From an uncultured Candidatus Saccharibacteria bacterium (GTDB taxonomy: Bacteria > Patescibacteriota > Minisyncoccia > Phycocordibacterales > WO2-35-19): DNA of 25,683 nt. The stretch spans positions 1 through 25,683 of the forward strand of contig CAYXQM010000001.1 in NCBI GenBank assembly GCA_964467495.1, given 5' to 3'. How positions within the stretch are numbered: the stretch's first letter is position 1; each line of letters opens with the position of its first letter. This document shows, in pieces, positions 2,774 to 23,166 of the stretch. Under the pieces are notes generated by a model, which saw nothing but the letters and a program-made list of their open reading frames with translations, searched no databases and was not told the DNA's origin. Position numbers and translations under genes: made by a program.

Positions 2774-3586
2774 ATGTTCAATCAATTTTTTGGAGAAGAA
2801 GGAGCAAAAAGAGTATCAAAATGGACTGCGTCCGTTCTATTTTTTCTATCCATTTTTTTGGTAGTAAAAATTATCGCTGACCTGAAAGCACTACCAGATA
2901 TTGGCCGAGACATTTATCCACAGTCAACTATTATGGTTAGCGGTGAAGGCGAAGCTTTCGCTATTCCTGACATTGCCTCATTCTCATTTTCAGTAACCGA
3001 AGTAGGTGAATCAGTAGCCGCTGCCCAAGGTTTACTTGATACCAAAATTAATCAGGCTTTAGCTGTATTAAAGGATGCCGAGATAGAAGATAAAGATATA
3101 AAAACTACCGGCTACAATGTTTATCCAAAATATGAATGGCAACAAGTGTATTGCGTTACTTACCCTTGTCCTTCGGGAAAAAATAAACTAATTGGTTATG
3201 AAGTAAGCCAAAGTGTAACAGTTAAAGTAAAAGAAATAGATAAAGCAGGAGATTTGGTTAGCAAAATAGGCGCCGTAAATGTTTCCAATATTAGCGGTGT
3301 GGAATTTACTGTAGACAACAGAGAAGATTTTGTCTCTCAAGCCAGAGAAGAGGCCATAAAAAAAGCCAAGGAGGAAGCTAAGATTTTAGCTAAACAACTC
3401 GGAGTTCGTCTGGGGAAAATTATTTACTACAACGAAAATGGCAATTACCCGATTTATTATGGGATGGAAGGAAAAGGTGGTGGTACTGATATGGCAGTTT
3501 CTTCCATAGCTCCATTGAGGGCAGAATTACCACAGGGCGAAACCAAGATTACTTCACAGGTTACTATCACTTACGAGATAAAATAA
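2774..3586 (+). CDS. SIMPL domain (DUF541/YggE-like) protein with N-terminal membrane anchor
   Basis: TIMVSGEGEAFAIPDIASFSFSV, IKTTGYNVYPKY, AREEAIKKAKEEA, C-terminal VTITYEI. Confidence 0.85.
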   Translation: MFNQFFGEEGAKRVSKWTASVLFFLSIFLVVKIIADLKALPDIGRDIYPQSTIMVSGEGEAFAIPDIASFSFSVTEVGESVAAAQGLLDTKINQALAVLKDAEIEDKDIKTTGYNVYPKYEWQQVYCVTYPCPSGKNKLIGYEVSQSVTVKVKEIDKAGDLVSKIGAVNVSNISGVEFTVDNREDFVSQAREEAIKKAKEEAKILAKQLGVRLGKIIYYNENGNYPIYYGMEGKGGGTDMAVSSIAPLRAELPQGETKITSQVTITYEIK

Positions 3587-12330: not shown

Positions 12331-13264
12331 CGTAATCTAATCAATAGCTTGGACGTGATTTAATAATTGTATTGGGGCGCGAAATGAAATTCCCATGTGC
12401 AATCTTTCGGTATTGTAATACTTTAAATATTTTTTAAGAGCCTCGTTGATTAAAGGAACTTCTCTCTTAACTTTGTCCAAACATTCTTCCTGCACTGTTC
12501 GATTGAATCTCTCGATGTGTGAGTTGTCATTGGGTTTGCCAATTCTGGTGTAGCGATGATTCTTTTTGATCTGACCCACAAACCACATACCAAACTCCAG
12601 TCCATGATCAGATTGAAGCATGAGGAATGAGAAGTTTGCTTCTCTTTGGGCTTCTCTCACAAAATCTAACATCATTCTGCTATTCATTTTTTCATAACAT
12701 TTTGCATACACCCATCTTGAAAAGACATCAATCAATACAAAAACATATATTCTGGTCTTTTCTCCAGTCATGAGATGAATAGTGTCAATCTCAACCAAAT
12801 TACCAGCTTTTAGAGGGTACGGACGATCTACATGAGGATGAAATCGTTTCCATGGACTTCTCTTGTTTAATAGTCCGGTTCGGTCTAGTGTGCGTTTGAC
12901 AGACGAGAGAGATATTCCAATTCCTTGATTCAGAAGCTCTTGATGTATGACCTCAGCACATCTTTTGGTCTTGAGTCTTTGGTGGAAGATTTTCCATATC
13001 ATATCATTGGTTAATTCTTTCGGATGATGTTTTGGTCTCGATGAGAGTGTCGGTATGAGATGATATCCGTATCTTTCTGCTTTCTTGACCCATTTGCATA
13101 TGGTACTGGAGCCTACACCAAACCGTCGACCGGTTTCGGTTGGTGTGTGACCTCTTCTGACCATATCTGCCGCTTGTTGACGCACTTTCGGCATGTGCGG
13201 ATTTTGTGTGTATGCCATATGCTCCGATTCTACCTTATTGCGTCCAAGCTATTGAACCATTACG
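12331..13264 (-). mobile_element. IS481-like insertion sequence, 934 bp
   Basis: Terminal inverted repeats cgtaat-ctaa-tcaatagcttggacg (12331-12355) and cgtccaagctattga-acc-attacg (13241-13264); single transposase; no target duplication visible. Confidence 0.85.
12337..13218 (-). CDS. IS481-family DDE transposase (HTH + rve integrase core)
   Basis: HTH RRFGVGSSTICKW; VEIDT, IDVFSR, QSDHGLEF, HIERFNRT. Confidence 0.9.
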   Translation of the reverse strand: MAYTQNPHMPKVRQQAADMVRRGHTPTETGRRFGVGSSTICKWVKKAERYGYHLIPTLSSRPKHHPKELTNDMIWKIFHQRLKTKRCAEVIHQELLNQGIGISLSSVKRTLDRTGLLNKRSPWKRFHPHVDRPYPLKAGNLVEIDTIHLMTGEKTRIYVFVLIDVFSRWVYAKCYEKMNSRMMLDFVREAQREANFSFLMLQSDHGLEFGMWFVGQIKKNHRYTRIGKPNDNSHIERFNRTVQEECLDKVKREVPLINEALKKYLKYYNTERLHMGISFRAPIQLLNHVQAID

Positions 13265-13993: not shown

Positions 13994-14380
13994 ATGAGAA
14001 ATAATATTTTGTTGTTTATTTTAGTTTTAGCAATAAGTCTCGCCACAGCTTCTTATTTTGGTGGTTGGTATGATTATTTTGTACCACAGTATGATTACTC
14101 ACTATTGGGAATTGATCAGGAGACTATTGTGTATGTAGCTGGTTTATTTTTTGCTTACGTATTTTTTGTCCCGTTTATATTTGAATTACTTGGGAAAGGA
14201 AGCAAAAACAAATGGATGGTTATTCTTTTGGCTCCAGTGATACTTTTTTATCTATATGATAGTGTGGCACTTGTCTACATCCCCATTATCGCCAGCATTG
14301 CCGGCTGTCTGATTGCAAAACTGACTAATCTTGTTATTCGGCAATTCAGACATCCTAACCCGCCGATGGTGATTAAGTGA
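13994..14380 (+). CDS. Small multi-pass membrane protein ending HPNPPMVIK
   Basis: About four hydrophobic segments; starts 3 nt after the remnant stop. Confidence 0.75.
   Translation: MRNNILLFILVLAISLATASYFGGWYDYFVPQYDYSLLGIDQETIVYVAGLFFAYVFFVPFIFELLGKGSKNKWMVILLAPVILFYLYDSVALVYIPIIASIAGCLIAKLTNLVIRQFRHPNPPMVIK
14356..14378 (+). repeat. 23-bp direct repeat, copy 1 (last codons of the membrane-protein gene)
   Basis: taacccgccgatggtgattaagt, identical to 15239-15261. Confidence 0.9.
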
Positions 14381-14390
14381 AGATAAAATA

Positions 14391-14426
14391 AACTCTTGAA
14401 TTAACTCTAGAGTTAATTCAAGAGTT
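14391..14426. repeat. Perfect 36-bp palindrome with no loop
   Basis: aactcttgaattaactct|agagttaattcaagagtt. Confidence 0.95.
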
Positions 14427-14443
14427 ACAAATAAATTAAAATT

Positions 14444-14974
14444 ATGGAAAAACTAGACCCAAATTTACAAAAAAAATGGGAAAGTGAACTTGCCAAGGAA
14501 GGTTTACCTGAAACTCCTTCGGGAAAAGAAACAGTTGTTGAAGAAACAGGAGGTGATATCCTTAACGCTGAAGAAAAAATGCTTGCAAAAGCCATGGAGG
14601 ATATTTTAAGAGAGTATAATGCTCTACCAAGTGAGATTCAGCAAGATATTATTGATGATATTAAAAAACGAAAAGAAGTAGGAGCAAGTTTTAAAACAAT
14701 TTCTGACCGCTTACATCTTTTGGTCCAAAAAGGTTCCGAGCTTGATGTCATGACTAACGAAGATTCAGACAGATACTACCAACCACAACCTTCACTGGAA
14801 GAAATAAAATTGAAAGAGGAAATAGAGGGAAGAAAAGAGATTGTTTCAAGGGATATTGATGACCTTTTAAAAAAATTAGAGCAAATTAAACAAAAAGGTA
14901 TTAATAAAGCAAACAGAAGAGGGAATTCTGATGAAAACAAACCGCCAAAGTTACCTCCAGATCAAATACATTAA
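14444..14974 (+). CDS. Hypothetical acidic, helical protein
   Basis: 176-aa ORF with host-like composition; no family recognised. Confidence 0.7.
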   Translation: MEKLDPNLQKKWESELAKEGLPETPSGKETVVEETGGDILNAEEKMLAKAMEDILREYNALPSEIQQDIIDDIKKRKEVGASFKTISDRLHLLVQKGSELDVMTNEDSDRYYQPQPSLEEIKLKEEIEGRKEIVSRDIDDLLKKLEQIKQKGINKANRRGNSDENKPPKLPPDQIH

Positions 14975-14978
14975 AATT

Positions 14979-15161
14979 ATGGGTAGAAAATCTTTAGAAA
15001 ATCGTAATGTAAGGAAACTTACAAAAACAGGGGGAGGGAAGAGCATCTCTGTAACTTTACCAATTGAATACATTCGAGAATTAAAATGGAAAGACCGCCA
15101 AAAGGTGATTGTAAAAAAGAAAGACAAATCCTTGATTGTTTCTGACTGGAAACCAAAGTAA
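14979..15161 (+). CDS. AbrB/MazE/SpoVT-type DNA-binding protein (60 aa; start ATG 14979)
   Basis: RKLTKTGGGKSISVTLPIEYIRELKWKDRQKVIV, swapped-hairpin pattern. Confidence 0.8.
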   Translation: MGRKSLENRNVRKLTKTGGGKSISVTLPIEYIRELKWKDRQKVIVKKKDKSLIVSDWKPK

Positions 15162-15238
15162 AAAATATACGAAGAATATCCAGCCGTTTAGACGCCCTCA
15201 AACTTCGCTCTGGTTAGCATAAAGTTTTGCTGAACAAG

Positions 15239-15261
15239 TAACCCGCCGATGGTGATTAAGT
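15239..15261 (+). repeat. 23-bp direct repeat, copy 2 (not in an ORF)
   Basis: Identical to 14356-14378; reads NPPMVIK-TAA but is preceded by an in-frame TGA at 15231. Confidence 0.9.
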
Positions 15262-15349
15262 AAAAGGGGGATAAAGGAGTGCTGGATATTTTATATTTGC
15301 TATAATTGAAGTAAGTATGTGTCCACGTTCGATTTGCTCCCCCTAGGCA

Positions 15350-19399: not shown

Positions 19400-19663
19400 A
19401 TGGATGAAAAAAAGGAACAAAAAAATACGGAATCAGCAAAAACAAAAAGAGCTTTGAAAGGGGTAGTAGTATCAGACAAAATGAAAGATACAGCAGTAGT
19501 TTCAGTTACCAGATTTGTTAAACACCCGAAATATAAAAAATATCACAAGATAAGCAAAAGATACAAGGCTCATGATGTCGGCAATACTAAAAAAGTAGGA
19601 GACAAAGTTGAAATAGTGAGTTGTCGCCCGATTTCGAAAGATAAACATTTCAAAATTTTATGA
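19400..19663 (+). CDS. rpsQ: 30S ribosomal protein S17
   Basis: [29 protein letters not shown]. Confidence 0.96.
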
Positions 19664-20037
19664 TTCAAGTTCAAACACTGGTAAAAATAGCCGATAACTC
19701 AGGCGCTAAAATAGGGCGAGTTTTCAAGATTCCCGGTAGTTCCAAAAAGCGATATGCTAAAATCGGAGAGCTGGTAATTTTTTCAGTTCAAAAAGCCGAA
19801 CCTAGAAAGGAAATTAAAAAGAAAGCCATTTTAACCGGTTTAGTGGTTCGCCAAAAAGCACCTTTGCGCAGAAAGGACGGTTCTTACATTCGTTTTGATG
19901 AAAATGCGGTTATTGTAATAGACAAGAAAAAAGGAGAAATTACACCAAGAGCAGGACGCATTTTCGGGCCAATACCAAGAGAAATCGCTGAGGCTGGACA
20001 TCAGGCAATTGTTTCTTTGGCACCGGAGATAATCTAA
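19660..20037 (+). CDS. rplN: 50S ribosomal protein L14
   Basis: [36 protein letters not shown]. Confidence 0.96.
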
Positions 20038-20042
20038 ACATC

Positions 20043-20270
20043 ATGAAAATTAAAAAAGGAGACAAAGTAATAATCATTACCGGAAAAGATAAAGGCAAAT
20101 CAGGGCCGGTAATCAAAGCTTTCCCAAAAAATGAGATGGTGTTGGTGGAAAAAGTTAATATAAAAAAATTACATAAAAAACCCAGAAAACAAGGAGAAAA
20201 AGGCAAGATAATAGAGCAAGCTACCCCGGTGCATGTATCTAATGTTAAAAAAATACAGAACACAAAATAA
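20043..20270 (+). CDS. rplX: 50S ribosomal protein L24 (short, 75 aa)
   Basis: KIKKGDKVIIITGKDKGK, VEKVN, PVHVSNV. Confidence 0.93.
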   Translation: MKIKKGDKVIIITGKDKGKSGPVIKAFPKNEMVLVEKVNIKKLHKKPRKQGEKGKIIEQATPVHVSNVKKIQNTK

Positions 20271-20275
20271 AAAAT

Positions 20276-20812
20276 ATGAAAAGTTTCAGACAAAAAACAA
20301 AAGAAGTTTTTAAAGAACTCAAAGAAAAATTGGGGCTTAAAAATATTATGCAGTCTCCCAAAATTGAAAAAGTAGTCATTAATTCCGGTGTTGGTAAATT
20401 TAATGATAAAAAGAAAATAGATTTGGTTGTAGACAGATTGTCTAAAATCACAGGACAGAAACCCATAACCAGAGGAGCTAAAAAATCGGTGGCTTCATTT
20501 AAATTAAGAGAAGGGGATATTGTTGGGGTGCAAGTCACTTTGCGCGGTGAAAAAATGTGGAGTTTCTTGGATAGACTTTTTAATATTGCTTTACCACGTA
20601 CCAAAGACTTTCGCGGACTTTCTCTCGGGGCTGTAGATGAGATGGGGAATTATACTATGGCTGTCAGAGAGCACACGGTATTTTCAGAAACTTCTGACGA
20701 AGATATAAAAGACATCTTCGGCTTTTCGGCTACCATTGTCACTTCTCTCAAATCAAAATCAGACGCTTTAGAATTCTTCAAAGCTTTAGATTTTCCGTTT
20801 AAGAAAAAATAA
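20276..20812 (+). CDS. rplE: 50S ribosomal protein L5
   Basis: PKIEKVVINSGVG, ITGQKP, AKKSVASFKLREG, TLRG, IALPRTKDFRG. Confidence 0.97.
   Translation: MKSFRQKTKEVFKELKEKLGLKNIMQSPKIEKVVINSGVGKFNDKKKIDLVVDRLSKITGQKPITRGAKKSVASFKLREGDIVGVQVTLRGEKMWSFLDRLFNIALPRTKDFRGLSLGAVDEMGNYTMAVREHTVFSETSDEDIKDIFGFSATIVTSLKSKSDALEFFKALDFPFKKK
20774..20812 (+). repeat. 39-bp repeat, copy 1 = last 13 codons of rplE
   Basis: FFKALDFPFKKK-TAA; 33/39 identical to 21301-21339. Confidence 0.9.
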
Positions 20813-20833
20813 TTTTTGTGATATAATGCTTTT

Positions 20834-21070
20834 ATGATTCAAAATTATATTGAAAACTATTTAAAAAAAGCCAGATACGAAATAATAGACGGCGGCAGGA
20901 AATTTTACGCGGAAGTAAAAGAATTGCGTGGCGTTTGGGCTACCGGTAAAACTCTTGAAGAATGCCGATATAATCTTGCTAACACCATTGAAGGTTGGTT
21001 GATTTTGAGATTGAAAAAAAATCTTTCTATTCCGAATTTCAGAGTGCCTAGTGCCCGTCTGAAAGTTTAA
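20834..21070 (+). CDS. hicB: HicB-like antitoxin (no C-terminal DNA-binding domain)
   Basis: FYAEVKELRGVWATGKTLEECR...IEGWL. Confidence 0.85.
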   Translation: MIQNYIENYLKKARYEIIDGGRKFYAEVKELRGVWATGKTLEECRYNLANTIEGWLILRLKKNLSIPNFRVPSARLKV

Positions 21071-21078
21071 TTTTTTAT

Positions 21079-21300
21079 ATGTCTAAGTTAGGTCCGATAT
21101 CGTGGATCAAATTTGTAAGGAGAATGAGAGTTCTCGGTTTTAACGGACCTTACCAAGAAGGCAAACATCCTTATGTGATTAAAGGTAACATTTCTATTAC
21201 TATTCCAAATCCTCATGATGGAGAAATCAGCGTAGATTTACTCTCCCGCATCCTTCGCCAAGCTGGTGTTTCTAGAAACGTCTGGATGAGATTTAAATAA
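21079..21300 (+). CDS. hicA: HicA family mRNA interferase toxin
   Basis: LGF...EGKH (catalytic His), TIPNPH, LLSRILRQAG. Confidence 0.88.
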   Translation: MSKLGPISWIKFVRRMRVLGFNGPYQEGKHPYVIKGNISITIPNPHDGEISVDLLSRILRQAGVSRNVWMRFK

Positions 21301-21339
21301 TTTTTCAAAGCTTTGGGTTTTCCGTTTAAGAAGAAGTAG
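21301..21339 (+). repeat. 39-bp repeat, copy 2 = displaced rplE 3' end
   Basis: FFKALGFPFKKK-TAG; abuts the hicA stop. Confidence 0.9.
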
Positions 21340-21346
21340 TTCACTA

Positions 21347-22012
21347 CTAATGTGCGATAAAAAGGCCGACGACACGGCGGGCTCCAACAGAAAAGAGAAC
21401 TCGGCGAGCTTCGGAGAAAGAAGCCAAAGTGGTGTAAACATCATCCAAAACTATTATGGTGCGGTGGCCGACCCCAGAAGAGTCGGCCATCATGCTATTC
21501 TTTACATTCAAAAGTCGCTGGTCTCGTCCGAGCTCTGTTTGTCTCTTGGTCTCTCTGATCTTGCGGAGCGCCGTGTAAGAAATATCAAGATTACCCCCGG
21601 CCATTTTTTCAACCTCTTTTAAAAGTTCCTCGCATTGGTTAAAGCCCTTTTTTTGCTTTTCTTTTTTACTCATTGGCATAGGTACCAGAAGTGGCGGAGC
21701 GCCGTCAAATAAAGAAATATCAGAGGACATTTCCATTATTTCGTCATACAAATATTCGGCAATTCTTTTTCGCAAACCGGCATTGTTTTTGTATTTTATA
21801 GACCTGACTACGAGCTTTACTATTCTATTATCGTAATCAAACAAAACAAAAAGGTCTTTGACTCTGGTCTTGGATGAAGGCAGAAGGTTTCTCATTGTGG
21901 CGGCATCAAGCTCCAAAAGCCTTTGAATTTTGCGGTCTTCGGGTGCCAGCAGGTCTAGTGCTCTCCCCAGGGCATTTTTTACCCAACTTGCGGCTGACTT
22001 TAAAATAAACAT
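21347..22012 (-). CDS. comF: ComF/GntX-family phosphoribosyltransferase-fold competence protein
   Basis: SIKY, LVPMP, KGFNQ, KRQTEL, IIVLDDVYTT, GARRV. Confidence 0.82.
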   Translation of the reverse strand: MFILKSAASWVKNALGRALDLLAPEDRKIQRLLELDAATMRNLLPSSKTRVKDLFVLFDYDNRIVKLVVRSIKYKNNAGLRKRIAEYLYDEIMEMSSDISLFDGAPPLLVPMPMSKKEKQKKGFNQCEELLKEVEKMAGGNLDISYTALRKIRETKRQTELGRDQRLLNVKNSMMADSSGVGHRTIIVLDDVYTTLASFSEARRVLFSVGARRVVGLFIAH

Positions 22013-22056
22013 TGTGTTATAATTATCACTTAATTAAACAGAATTTCATAATTTTT

Positions 22057-23166
22057 ATGAGCTTTTTCTCGGATATTTTAAAAAAGAAGAACATTAGTGC
22101 TTTGGGCATTGATATCGGCTCTTCTTCCATAAAAGTAGTTCAGCTTCGAAAGAAAGGGGATAAAGCCATACTGGAAACTTATGGCGAATTATCATTGGGC
22201 CCATACGGCGGAGTTTCAGTGGGAGAATCTACAAATTTGCCAACTGAAAAAATTGCTCAAGCCATGAATGATCTCCTTTCTGAAAAAGAAGTTGCCGTAA
22301 CCACCAAAGTTTGCGGCATAGCCATTCCTTTTAGGGCTTCCTTGATGTCGGTTATAGAGATGCCAGCTAACATAAAAGAAAAAGAGTTGGCGACTATGAT
22401 ACCCATAGAAGCTCGAAAATATATACCAGTACCAATTTCCGATGTTACCATTGATTGGTCAATAATACCTAAACTAGAATCTGAAGACGAAGCTTCTAGG
22501 ACTGCTAATGTAAATAAGCCAGAAACAAGAGAAATTCTTTTGGTGGCTATTCATAATCGCATCATTGACCAATATAAAGAGATTGTCACTAAGTCCGGTC
22601 TGGATGCTAAATTTTTTGAAATAGAAGTTTTTAGTTCTATGCGAGCAGTCTTGGAAGGAATTAAAGGTGCTGTTATGATTTTTGATATGGGGGCTTCAAC
22701 TACTAAACTTTATATTGTGGAAAGAGGACTGATTCATTATTCGCATACTATCAACAGAGGGTCTCAGGATATTACTGCCAACATTGCCCGAATTATAAAT
22801 GTTTCTACAGAAGAAGCCGAAGTTCTCAAAAGGTCTGTGGGTATGGGTAAAACCTTGGATGGAGCAGATTTGTCGGAAGCGGTTTCTGTGGTGGCAGACC
22901 AAATATTTTCGGAGGCCAATAGATTTTTGCTAGATTTTCAAAAGAAAGAGAACCGAAATGTTAAATCAATCTTTCTAACCGGTGGTGGCTCGGCCCTCAA
23001 GGGATTTAGAGAACTGGCAGCTCAGAATTTTAAAATAGAAGTAGTAGCCGGCGATCCTTTTGAAAAAGTAGAAACTCCAGCTTTTCTAGAAGAAATCCTT
23101 AAGGTCACTGGTCCTGAATTTACTGTTTCCGTCGGCGCTGCTTTGAGGTGTTTGGGGGAACTCTGA
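22057..23166 (+). CDS. pilM: Type IV pilus assembly protein PilM (start probably ATG 22057)
   Basis: LGIDIGSSSIKVVQL, EARKYIPVP, FDMGASTT, LTGGGSALKG. Confidence 0.93.
   Translation: MSFFSDILKKKNISALGIDIGSSSIKVVQLRKKGDKAILETYGELSLGPYGGVSVGESTNLPTEKIAQAMNDLLSEKEVAVTTKVCGIAIPFRASLMSVIEMPANIKEKELATMIPIEARKYIPVPISDVTIDWSIIPKLESEDEASRTANVNKPETREILLVAIHNRIIDQYKEIVTKSGLDAKFFEIEVFSSMRAVLEGIKGAVMIFDMGASTTKLYIVERGLIHYSHTINRGSQDITANIARIINVSTEEAEVLKRSVGMGKTLDGADLSEAVSVVADQIFSEANRFLLDFQKKENRNVKSIFLTGGGSALKGFRELAAQNFKIEVVAGDPFEKVETPAFLEEILKVTGPEFTVSVGAALRCLGEL

Follow-up and report, generated by a model that had tools for sequence, protein, structure and literature searches.

Two versions of the rplE 3' end flank a hicBA toxin-antitoxin unit in an uncultured Patescibacteria lineage

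Integrase-borne elements such as phage 21 and e14 in icd, as well as islands in tRNA genes, carry a replacement 3' end of the gene in which they reside, and the superintegrons of Vibrio contain cassettes with toxin-antitoxin pairs. Restriction-modification units that lack a transposase or integrase gene have been found between direct repeats measuring from tens of bp to about 100 bp, and relatives without the unit have one copy of the repeat at the corresponding site (PMC2853133; PMC3874152). The repeats of such insertions with long target duplication (Gene 259:99, 2000) often span a start or stop codon, sparing the neighbour gene, and the hosts are mostly naturally competent species (PMC2853133, Furuta, Abe and Kobayashi 2010). 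Here we describe a locus of related design on a 25.7-kb contig (C1, the whole of which is referred to as the window and supplies all positions given below) from an uncultured lineage of the Candidate Phyla Radiation (CPR)/Patescibacteria. A hicBA toxin-antitoxin pair at this locus lies directly behind rplE, the gene for ribosomal protein L5, and is followed by a second version of the rplE end. The assembly (G000) was obtained from a metagenome, comprises 566 kb in 107 contigs, and is about 76–77% complete.

As in the insertions with long target duplication described by the Kobayashi group, the repeat at rplE exceeds 30 bp (43 nt), no mobility gene is present, the empty site holds a single copy, and the neighbour gene is intact. 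The locus differs from those insertions in that its cargo is a type II toxin-antitoxin pair rather than a restriction-modification system, its host belongs to the CPR/Patescibacteria, and its two repeat copies are not near-identical (37/43, with a coding-like pattern of differences). The original prediction for this DNA had considered a toxin-antitoxin pair anchored in a ribosomal protein gene without a mobility gene to be unusual. In kind it is not, given that restriction-modification genes are known to insert with long target duplications that include a start or stop codon (PMC2853133). In the papers searched, such an architecture was described neither for type II toxin-antitoxin pairs nor for CPR bacteria, which is not proof of its absence. 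The novelty lies in the host lineage and the cargo, in the use of a ribosomal-protein gene as anchor, in the repeated occurrence of the arrangement in the hicBA family, and in the evidence for orthologous rather than duplicated gene ends.

Layout of the rplE–hicBA–comF locus

A repeat search of the window revealed a direct repeat of 43 nt in two copies, at 20772–20814 and 21299–21341, which are identical at 37/43 positions (86%) and are separated by 527 nt from start to start. Copy 1 (tail 1) is the functional 3' end of rplE (20276–20812, plus strand), which encodes an intact L5 protein of 178 amino acids (Pfam Ribosomal_L5, 75 bits; L5_C, 93 bits) with the same length as in relatives. The last 13 codons of the gene, in the register 20774–20812, specify FFKALDFPFKKK and the stop codon TAA, and the corresponding register of copy 2 (tail 2, plus strand), at 21301–21339, specifies FFKALGFPFKKK and the stop codon TAG. 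All six differences between the tails are transitions, five of them synonymous third-position changes (with TAA/TAG counted) and one an exchange of Asp for Gly, and the longest exact run common to both tails is 15 nt.

Only a promoter-like site, hicB, and hicA lie between the repeat copies, all on the plus strand. The promoter-like site (20799–20827) consists of the –35 element TTAAGA, which begins at 20799 inside tail 1, a 17-nt spacer, and the TG-extended –10 element TATAAT, with 10/12 matches overall. The antitoxin gene comes first: hicB (20834–21070) encodes 78 amino acids (Pfam PF21748, UPF0150/HicB-like, 91 bits) and is followed after 8 nt by hicA (21079–21300), which encodes a toxin of 73 amino acids (Pfam PF07927, HicA_toxin, 34.2 bits with a cut-off of 27, residues 11–64). 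The repeat coordinates and codon register, together with the domain and promoter searches, thus agree with the original prediction that the last 13 codons of rplE recur right behind the hicA stop with exactly these six differences, that nothing except an extended –10 promoter and hicBA separates the copies, and that the 527-bp unit, encoding HicB and HicA only, contains no mobility gene.

The TAA stop codon of hicA abuts tail 2, which is in the reading frame of hicA. This in-frame position is probably a coincidence, with a one-in-three chance of arising. Read-through of hicA (21298–21339) would append FFKALGFPFKKK to HicA by way of 12 relic codons and a stop. Seven nucleotides separate tail 2 from the stop of a convergent comF-like phosphoribosyltransferase gene (21347–22012, minus strand), which constitutes the conserved right flank of the locus (NCBIfam TIGR00201 comF, E 2e-19, under the curated cut-off; homologues are named ComF family). 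Next to it is pilM (22012–23166, plus strand; Pfam PilM_2, 148 bits), a gene for type IV pilus assembly, so that DNA-uptake machinery adjoins the site. Structure searches at the locus detected no terminator or attC-like structure between rplE and hicBA or in the tails. The start of hicBA is located 22 nt downstream of the ribosomal-protein operon, and this position without a terminator may couple expression of the toxin-antitoxin pair to ribosome synthesis.

When a 30-nt probe was applied to all 608 long open reading frames (ORFs) of the 566-kb assembly, the rplE tail was the sole gene tail with a downstream copy matching at 25/30 or better, and the repeat is therefore far beyond chance. A 21-nt probe of the same assembly added only a pair at 14360/15243, described at the end of this report, and one paralogue pair on contig C96. 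The duplicated-tail architecture is thus not widespread in the assembly.

Three other ENA assemblies (ERZ27248939, ERZ27248895, and ERZ27248953) and one Logan contig were found to encode either exactly this L5 protein or a 97% variant of it, and the order rplE, tail 1, hicB, hicA, tail 2, comF was the same in all four. Logan contigs from separate lake-water runs crossed each junction with 0 mismatches (X1 covering 20542–21332 and X3 covering 21136–21700). The original prediction had allowed that the second tail might be a chimera of two strains, and fragmentation of G000 and the existence of strain variants would be compatible with such a mis-join. The four independent assemblies and the mismatch-free junction contigs refute it, the 15-nt longest exact match between the tails being also too short to mislead an assembler working at k=141 (as read from contig names), and we regard the chance of an assembly artefact as negligible.

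With regard to the pair itself, the HicA domain PF07927, of the double-stranded-RNA-binding-like type, scored above its cut-off, as expected for a type II HicAB system, and the HicB N-terminal fold PF21748, of the partial RNase H-like type, spans the full length of HicB, homologues of which are named HicB family antitoxin by NCBI. This single domain fills the 78-residue protein, and a C-terminal DNA-binding domain of the ribbon-helix-helix (RHH) or helix-turn-helix (HTH) type, which would serve autoregulation, is absent from it. HicB is a short form, the DNA-binding domain being common in the family and not obligatory. The motif TGTGaTAtAAT is conserved upstream of hicB in the genomes G023, G043, G044, and G045. 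The pair is predicted to be an intact type II toxin-antitoxin system with its own extended –10 promoter, toxicity and neutralization likewise being predictions. In the G043 lineage (L035/L043/L154), hicA has undergone an internal deletion that fuses residues 1–27 to the C-terminal end, with hicB remaining intact, which is the order of decay expected of a real toxin. The same lineage has gained a gene for 389 amino acids upstream of hicB that appears DUF262/HNH-like by eye.

Empty sites, other carriers of hicBA, and the origin of the two tails

Relatives at the level of the order show the usual gene order rplE-rpsN-rpsH. The spc operon (19400–20812 in the window) is split behind rplE in the family to which the host belongs, with a comF-like gene facing rplE head-on in nine genomes, in which the two stop codons are 2–30 nt apart. 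In G000 the genes for S14-S8-L6-L18-S5 are found on the 2.5-kb contig C60 (L002, 415–2524), behind an unrelated minus-strand ORF. The closest lineage that we found, L150 (L5, ComF, and PilM being 88%, 78%, and 91% identical, respectively), lacks hicBA, and its single rplE tail is 10 nt away from the stop of comF. An empty site with one copy of the repeat, of the kind that the original prediction had suggested seeking, is thus present in the sister lineage L150 as well as in nine family genomes. Given that single tails lie beside comF in these relatives, tail 2 is at the ancestral position of the rplE end and is best seen as the displaced resident end. On these comparisons, the 527 bp consisting of tail 1, promoter, and hicBA are an insertion into the ancestral convergent rplE/comF junction, at a point 39–43 nt before the original rplE stop codon, with tail 1 completing L5 and tail 2 persisting as a non-coding relic. 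Tail 1 was probably imported with the cassette. A strain-level empty site was not found, all three ComF variants of the species adjoining hicBA.

Position thus marks tail 2 as resident. Comparison of the tails themselves with those of relatives, also proposed in the original prediction, did not tell donor from resident, since each differs from the L150 tail at 4/39 positions. Tail 1 has Asp where the sister L150 and the relatives G024, G018, and G022 have Gly. With L150 as outgroup, three changes fall on each tail: those on tail 1 include the change from Gly to Asp, and those on tail 2 are all third-position A-to-G changes, which run against the AT bias of the genome. Tail 2 contains no insertions or deletions. 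A second tail was sought in the rplE loci of 30 relatives and was found in none at 70% identity or more over 45 nt.

Genes for HicB proteins 86–88% identical to that of the window are present downstream of rplE in G044, G045, G043, and the L155/L156 lineage, in each case between rplE and comF or a response regulator gene, and G023, of another genus, also has such a gene after rplE. Only the segment from the TGTG-extended –10 element to the hicA stop is conserved among these lineages, the spacers and junctions differing in each. Four of the genomes (G023, G043, G044, and G045) have hicBA after rplE without a duplicate of the tail, an arrangement that the original prediction had named as evidence against it and that does count against a discrete mobile unit. 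In the L155/L156 lineage, 15 nt joined to the stop of hicA may, tentatively, be a remaining copy of the rplE end. G023 gained hicBA after its split from G014, which has an empty site and an rplE of 93% nucleotide identity, and an 11-nt piece of the site is present on both sides of the G023 insert. Nucleotide identity between carriers is 76–84% for hicBA and 69–78% for rplE plus rplX, and a comparison of G044 with G045 gave amino-acid identities of 94% for HicB versus 79% for L5. In other genomes of the family, the rplE–comF gap contains a response regulator gene, a RibD/DHFR-like reductase gene, a glycosyl-phosphotransferase gene, unknown genes, or nothing. Different cargo at the same site, which the original prediction had proposed to look for, was therefore found, and the differing contents identify the gap as a variable site.

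Recombination at the locus was also apparent among strains. L146 shows more than 20 differences from the window in 20290–20677 (about 5% divergence, over the first three quarters of rplE) and none from 20678 through hicBA into comF at 21403, where the contig ends. In this mosaic, a breakpoint falls within rplE, about 135 nt ahead of the stop codon. L148, from a co-occurring strain, is identical to the window over 19502–21332, after which its relic end reads AAAAAATAA in place of the AAGAAGTAG of the window. Its following segment (1832–2130, corresponding to window 21333–21614) has a spacer of 21 nt rather than 7 nt before comF, and the 3' region of comF shows five mismatches as far as 21614. 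The switch at 21332 places a breakpoint inside tail 2, and the two versions of the relic end differ only synonymously. A branch seen after 21332 in run X2 is the L148 variant. The 20-nt loose end of X2 had been compared with the rest of the assembly, where it matched only a chance 14-mer on contig C21, and L148 accounts for it.

The G000 assembly encodes RecA (458 bits), a ComEC that is partial because its gene runs into a contig end, a ComF-like protein, and, next to the site, PilM/N/O, from which the host is predicted to be equipped for DNA uptake and RecA-dependent recombination. The single tyrosine recombinase found in this 76% complete assembly, of the Phage_integrase family, is encoded on contig C5, with none near the site in the window, and looks like a housekeeping Xer protein, as we infer.

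Recurrence of flanking repeats in the hicBA family

The survey covered about 90 loci of this hicBA family, drawn from species-representative genomes and from metagenome contigs. An intact pair flanked by 150 nt or more in both directions was present at 60 of them, which comprised 51 distinct loci. The best flanking direct repeat within 400 nt was scored, with a threshold of 14 or more. Repeats at this threshold were found at 19/51 real loci, compared with 2/300 pairs of flanks taken across loci, 3/51 reverse-complement controls, and 5/55 pseudo-cassettes of equal size placed beside real ones (Fisher's test, P 7e-16 versus the cross-locus control and 9e-4 versus the pseudo-cassettes). The flanking repeats consist of local sequence that is different at each locus and range from 16 to 260 nt in length, and at least eight of them span the stop or start of a neighbour gene.

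The repeat at L125 corresponds to the end of an AMP-binding-enzyme gene, with the downstream copy still abutting the ATG of the next gene, and that at L135 to the end of an upstream ORF. Three copies of the end of a gene for a 68-residue L28-like protein, each with frame and stop, separate ParE-type and hicBA cassettes at L134 (2386–2455, 3046–3081, and 3729–3806), which resembles a small array at the end of a probable ribosomal-protein gene. Assignment of that host gene to ribosomal protein L28 proper was not retained, given that it had no Pfam match and that the NCBIfam L28 match (E 5e-4) was under the cut-off, and it is referred to here as L28-like only. At L096 an exact repeat of 91 nt that includes the end of a small ORF (1298–1388 and 3018–3108), together with a third, diverged copy, occurs between an MNT/HepT pair and hicBA, and at L097 a small-gene tail (repeat 40/40) belongs to an array that likewise includes an MNT/HepT pair. 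The repeat can also derive from the start of a gene, as at L091 (59/61; the first 11 codons and upstream region of a ThiF-family gene) and L142 (260 nt, including 163 nt of the 5' coding region of the gene). Further identical flanking repeats were found at L102 (28/28) and L129 (20/20). At L048 (2965–2987 and 3634–3656) and L120, the repeat is a promoter-like stretch starting with TTGACT, of which one copy precedes hicB and the other precedes the next gene, the latter gene being clpP-like by eye at L048.

If the second copy of such a repeat were a fresh duplication, a neutral relic would be expected to accumulate changes at every codon position and to diverge more quickly than the copy under constraint. 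When duplication followed by decay was simulated on these terms, 0.40–0.45 of differences fell at third positions, and the P for five or more of six, as in the window, was 0.03–0.05. For the pooled repeats that overlap coding sequence, 42/58 differences affected third positions, the expectation being 0.47 (P about 8e-5). The coding part of the L142 repeat shows 2/2/11 differences by codon position, with 11 synonymous and four non-synonymous (conservative) codons, and its non-coding part is twice as diverged. The middle copy at L134 (copy B) has kept frame and stop, and where its sequence departs from that of the functional tail the changes are synonymous or conservative. A coding-like pattern was apparent at L096 and L125 as well. 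The third-position excess in these diverged cases indicates that both copies evolved as working gene ends, and hence that one copy came from the functional gene of another lineage, either brought by the cassette or substituted later from such a source, rather than from a fresh duplication. The identical repeats of L097, L102, and L129 are compatible with a very close donor as well as with a true duplication.

Mechanism, alternatives, and related observations

The reading that we favour and consider reasonably probable is that DNA of a relative was taken up, recombined at one junction through its homology to rplE, and was joined at the other junction through a short homology. The donor would have been a related lineage that already possessed hicBA just downstream of its own rplE. 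The left junction would have formed by homologous pairing within rplE and the right junction at the 5-nt identity AATTT, which is common to the sequence behind the hicA stop and to the start of the resident tail; AATTT is also present behind the hicA stop in G023 and G045. Such an event would amount to homology-facilitated illegitimate recombination or, in a topologically equivalent form, to single-crossover integration of a circularized fragment via the short tail homology, and would not involve a dedicated integrase. With the inserted DNA starting with 13 substitute codons, L5 would have remained full length, and the old end would have survived as a non-functional remnant between hicA and comF. 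The toxin-antitoxin pair would presumably resist loss by addiction, and the whole segment could then have spread among co-occurring strains by ordinary homologous recombination in its flanks. Selection would have acted such that the surviving insertions inside gene ends are those that brought a replacement end. The same process of uptake and joining would explain why hicBA cassettes elsewhere so often lie between copies of the 3' or 5' end of an adjacent gene.

Homology-facilitated illegitimate recombination, as defined in PMC3240628, shares with the proposed route one homologous anchor, one microhomology joint, and the lack of an enzyme of the element, and both AATTT and the rplE breakpoint of L146 fit this pattern. 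Experimental events of this type usually delete recipient DNA at the illegitimate joint, whereas 39–43 nt are duplicated here, the mechanism being one that we infer. The original work is said to have been performed in Acinetobacter, Streptococcus, and Pseudomonas. The concept of minimal mobile elements in Neisseria (PMC3787668; PMC8627216) also bears on the locus. These elements consist of a conserved gene pair with varying whole-gene cargo, are exchanged by uptake and flank homology, and commonly carry toxin-antitoxin genes, and the rplE–comF gap is similar to them in this respect. They differ from it in that the swap occurs cleanly through both flanks, with no duplicated gene end.

The claim of the original prediction that foreign DNA carrying the rplE tail of another lineage and a toxin-antitoxin pair had recombined into the locus is thus largely supported by the empty sites, the position of tail 2, and the pooled codon pattern. 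Several observations weigh against it. No donor with a near-identical hicBA directly after rplE was found, the best HicB outside the species being 83–88% identical, and with the tails equidistant from the sister lineage the roles of donor and resident are assigned by position only. Sliding-window identity of rplE to 12 relatives and L150 showed no mosaic shift, these relatives being too distant, and the original left crossover was not locatable against the sampled relatives. The codon-position test for the window alone is marginal, so that the descent of both copies from functional ends of different lineages is strong on the pooled repeats only. Some of the 19 loci with flanking repeats (L106 and L120) contain palindromic or dispersed repeats and may represent a different phenomenon. 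In addition, natural transformation of this organism is a prediction, and 15 nt as the longest exact run shared by the tails is short for a RecA-dependent crossover.

Two alternatives retain the insertion and differ in the origin or age of the second tail. A de novo long target-site duplication, in which the promoter and hicBA entered a staggered break of about 40 nt in rplE, yielding two identical tails of which copy 1 then changed only synonymously and copy 2 decayed, would be in keeping with the many identical or near-identical flanking repeats at other loci (L097, L102, L129, and L091), with the 11-nt duplication in G023 of a site that is empty in G014, and with the near-identical repeats of the known restriction-modification cases (PMC2853133). 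We nevertheless consider it unlikely in view of the third-position excess in the window and in the pooled repeats, the 11 synonymous versus four non-synonymous codons at L142, the frame and stop kept by L134 copy B, and, in tail 2, the lack of insertions and deletions and the three outgroup-polarized changes, all of them at third positions and against the AT bias. Equally, hicBA might have been inserted long ago in an ancestor of G000, G043–G045, and the L155 lineage and inherited vertically, with tail 2 refreshed by recombination with the functional tails of empty-site strains. That spacers and junctions differ in each lineage, that the sister L150 and the nearest genus members G024, G018, and G022 are empty or differently filled, that G023 gained hicBA after its split from G014, and that HicB is more conserved than L5 between the hosts G044 and G045 make such an old insertion distinctly unlikely, even though hicBA is found after rplE in at least five lineages with a divergence like that of rplE and rplX, L155/L156 may keep a relic of the rplE end fused to hicA, and L148 shows that the distal half of tail 2 and the spacer can be swapped.

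A true site-specific micro-cassette, namely a 527-bp circle that a trans-acting recombinase would insert into and remove from the end of rplE, whether integron-like or exploiting Xer, appears very unlikely. The repeats vary in sequence and length (11–260 nt) from locus to locus, which leaves no common recognition site, and neither tail on either strand has an attC-like fold (z-scores of 0.45, 1.2, –0.75, and –0.71). The lone tyrosine recombinase of the assembly, which might be enlisted in favour of this scheme, is not encoded nearby and looks like Xer, as mentioned above. No circular form or circular joint was present among the Logan assembler contigs examined. With no circular joint, tails that do not fold, no donor, and four genomes with hicBA lacking a duplicate tail, the discrete mobile micro-cassette of the original prediction is not upheld. 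The arrays separated by repeated tails at L096 and L134 do recall such a system, as does the similarity to phage 21 and e14 in icd, in which an element-borne substitute end keeps the target gene intact and differs from the displaced end mostly synonymously. Those elements rely on a tyrosine integrase and a fixed att core, however, and the 527-bp unit described here has neither. Similarly, integron cassettes include promoter-bearing toxin-antitoxin units of about 0.5 kb that are sometimes arrayed, but at the hicBA loci the repeats are locus-specific and derive from the ends of neighbouring genes, and the present site lacks both an attC-like imperfect palindrome and a nearby IntI. The hicBA unit is not an integron cassette.

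Uptake and short-homology joining of a relative's DNA, if it is the route, would be relevant to CPR/Patescibacteria in general, which have tiny genomes and few classical mobile elements and in which the gain of accessory genes is poorly understood. The present locus and its look-alikes suggest a simple way in which DNA from relatives may be joined via a conserved gene end, with addiction modules being the cargo most likely to persist. They would extend insertion with long target duplication from restriction-modification to type II toxin-antitoxin systems and suggest that some such duplications are in fact orthologous ends of two lineages. Displaced gene ends could serve as datable fossils of the recipient allele and might allow donors and recipients to be traced in uncultured populations. 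It is possible, although we hold the idea to be doubtful, that hicBA-family cassettes of CPR bacteria, and perhaps ParE and MNT/HepT cassettes too, form a class of mobile units without a recombinase that use the end or start of a former neighbour gene as a homing arm. Short-homology integration into the orthologous gene would then keep that gene intact and leave a fossil of the resident end, and recurrence of such events would let arrays accumulate at the ends of essential genes, rplE and the L28-like gene being examples.

Elsewhere in the window, the pair of similar sequences detected with the 21-nt probe corresponds to a 22/23 repeat at 14356–14378 and 15239–15261, which comprises the last seven codons and the stop (TGA versus TAA) of a gene for a membrane protein of 128 amino acids. 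This repeat brackets a 36-nt palindrome, an ORF of 176 amino acids, and an AbrB/MazE-like gene for 60 amino acids. We did not count the unit (14356–15263) as a second cassette, given that paralogues of its host gene occur in relatives in multiple copies, often in tandem, and that the repeat may be a paralogue relic. An IS-type transposase gene, an ORF of 293 amino acids with an HTH and an rve integrase core (12337–13218, minus strand), is located 1 kb upstream of this unit.

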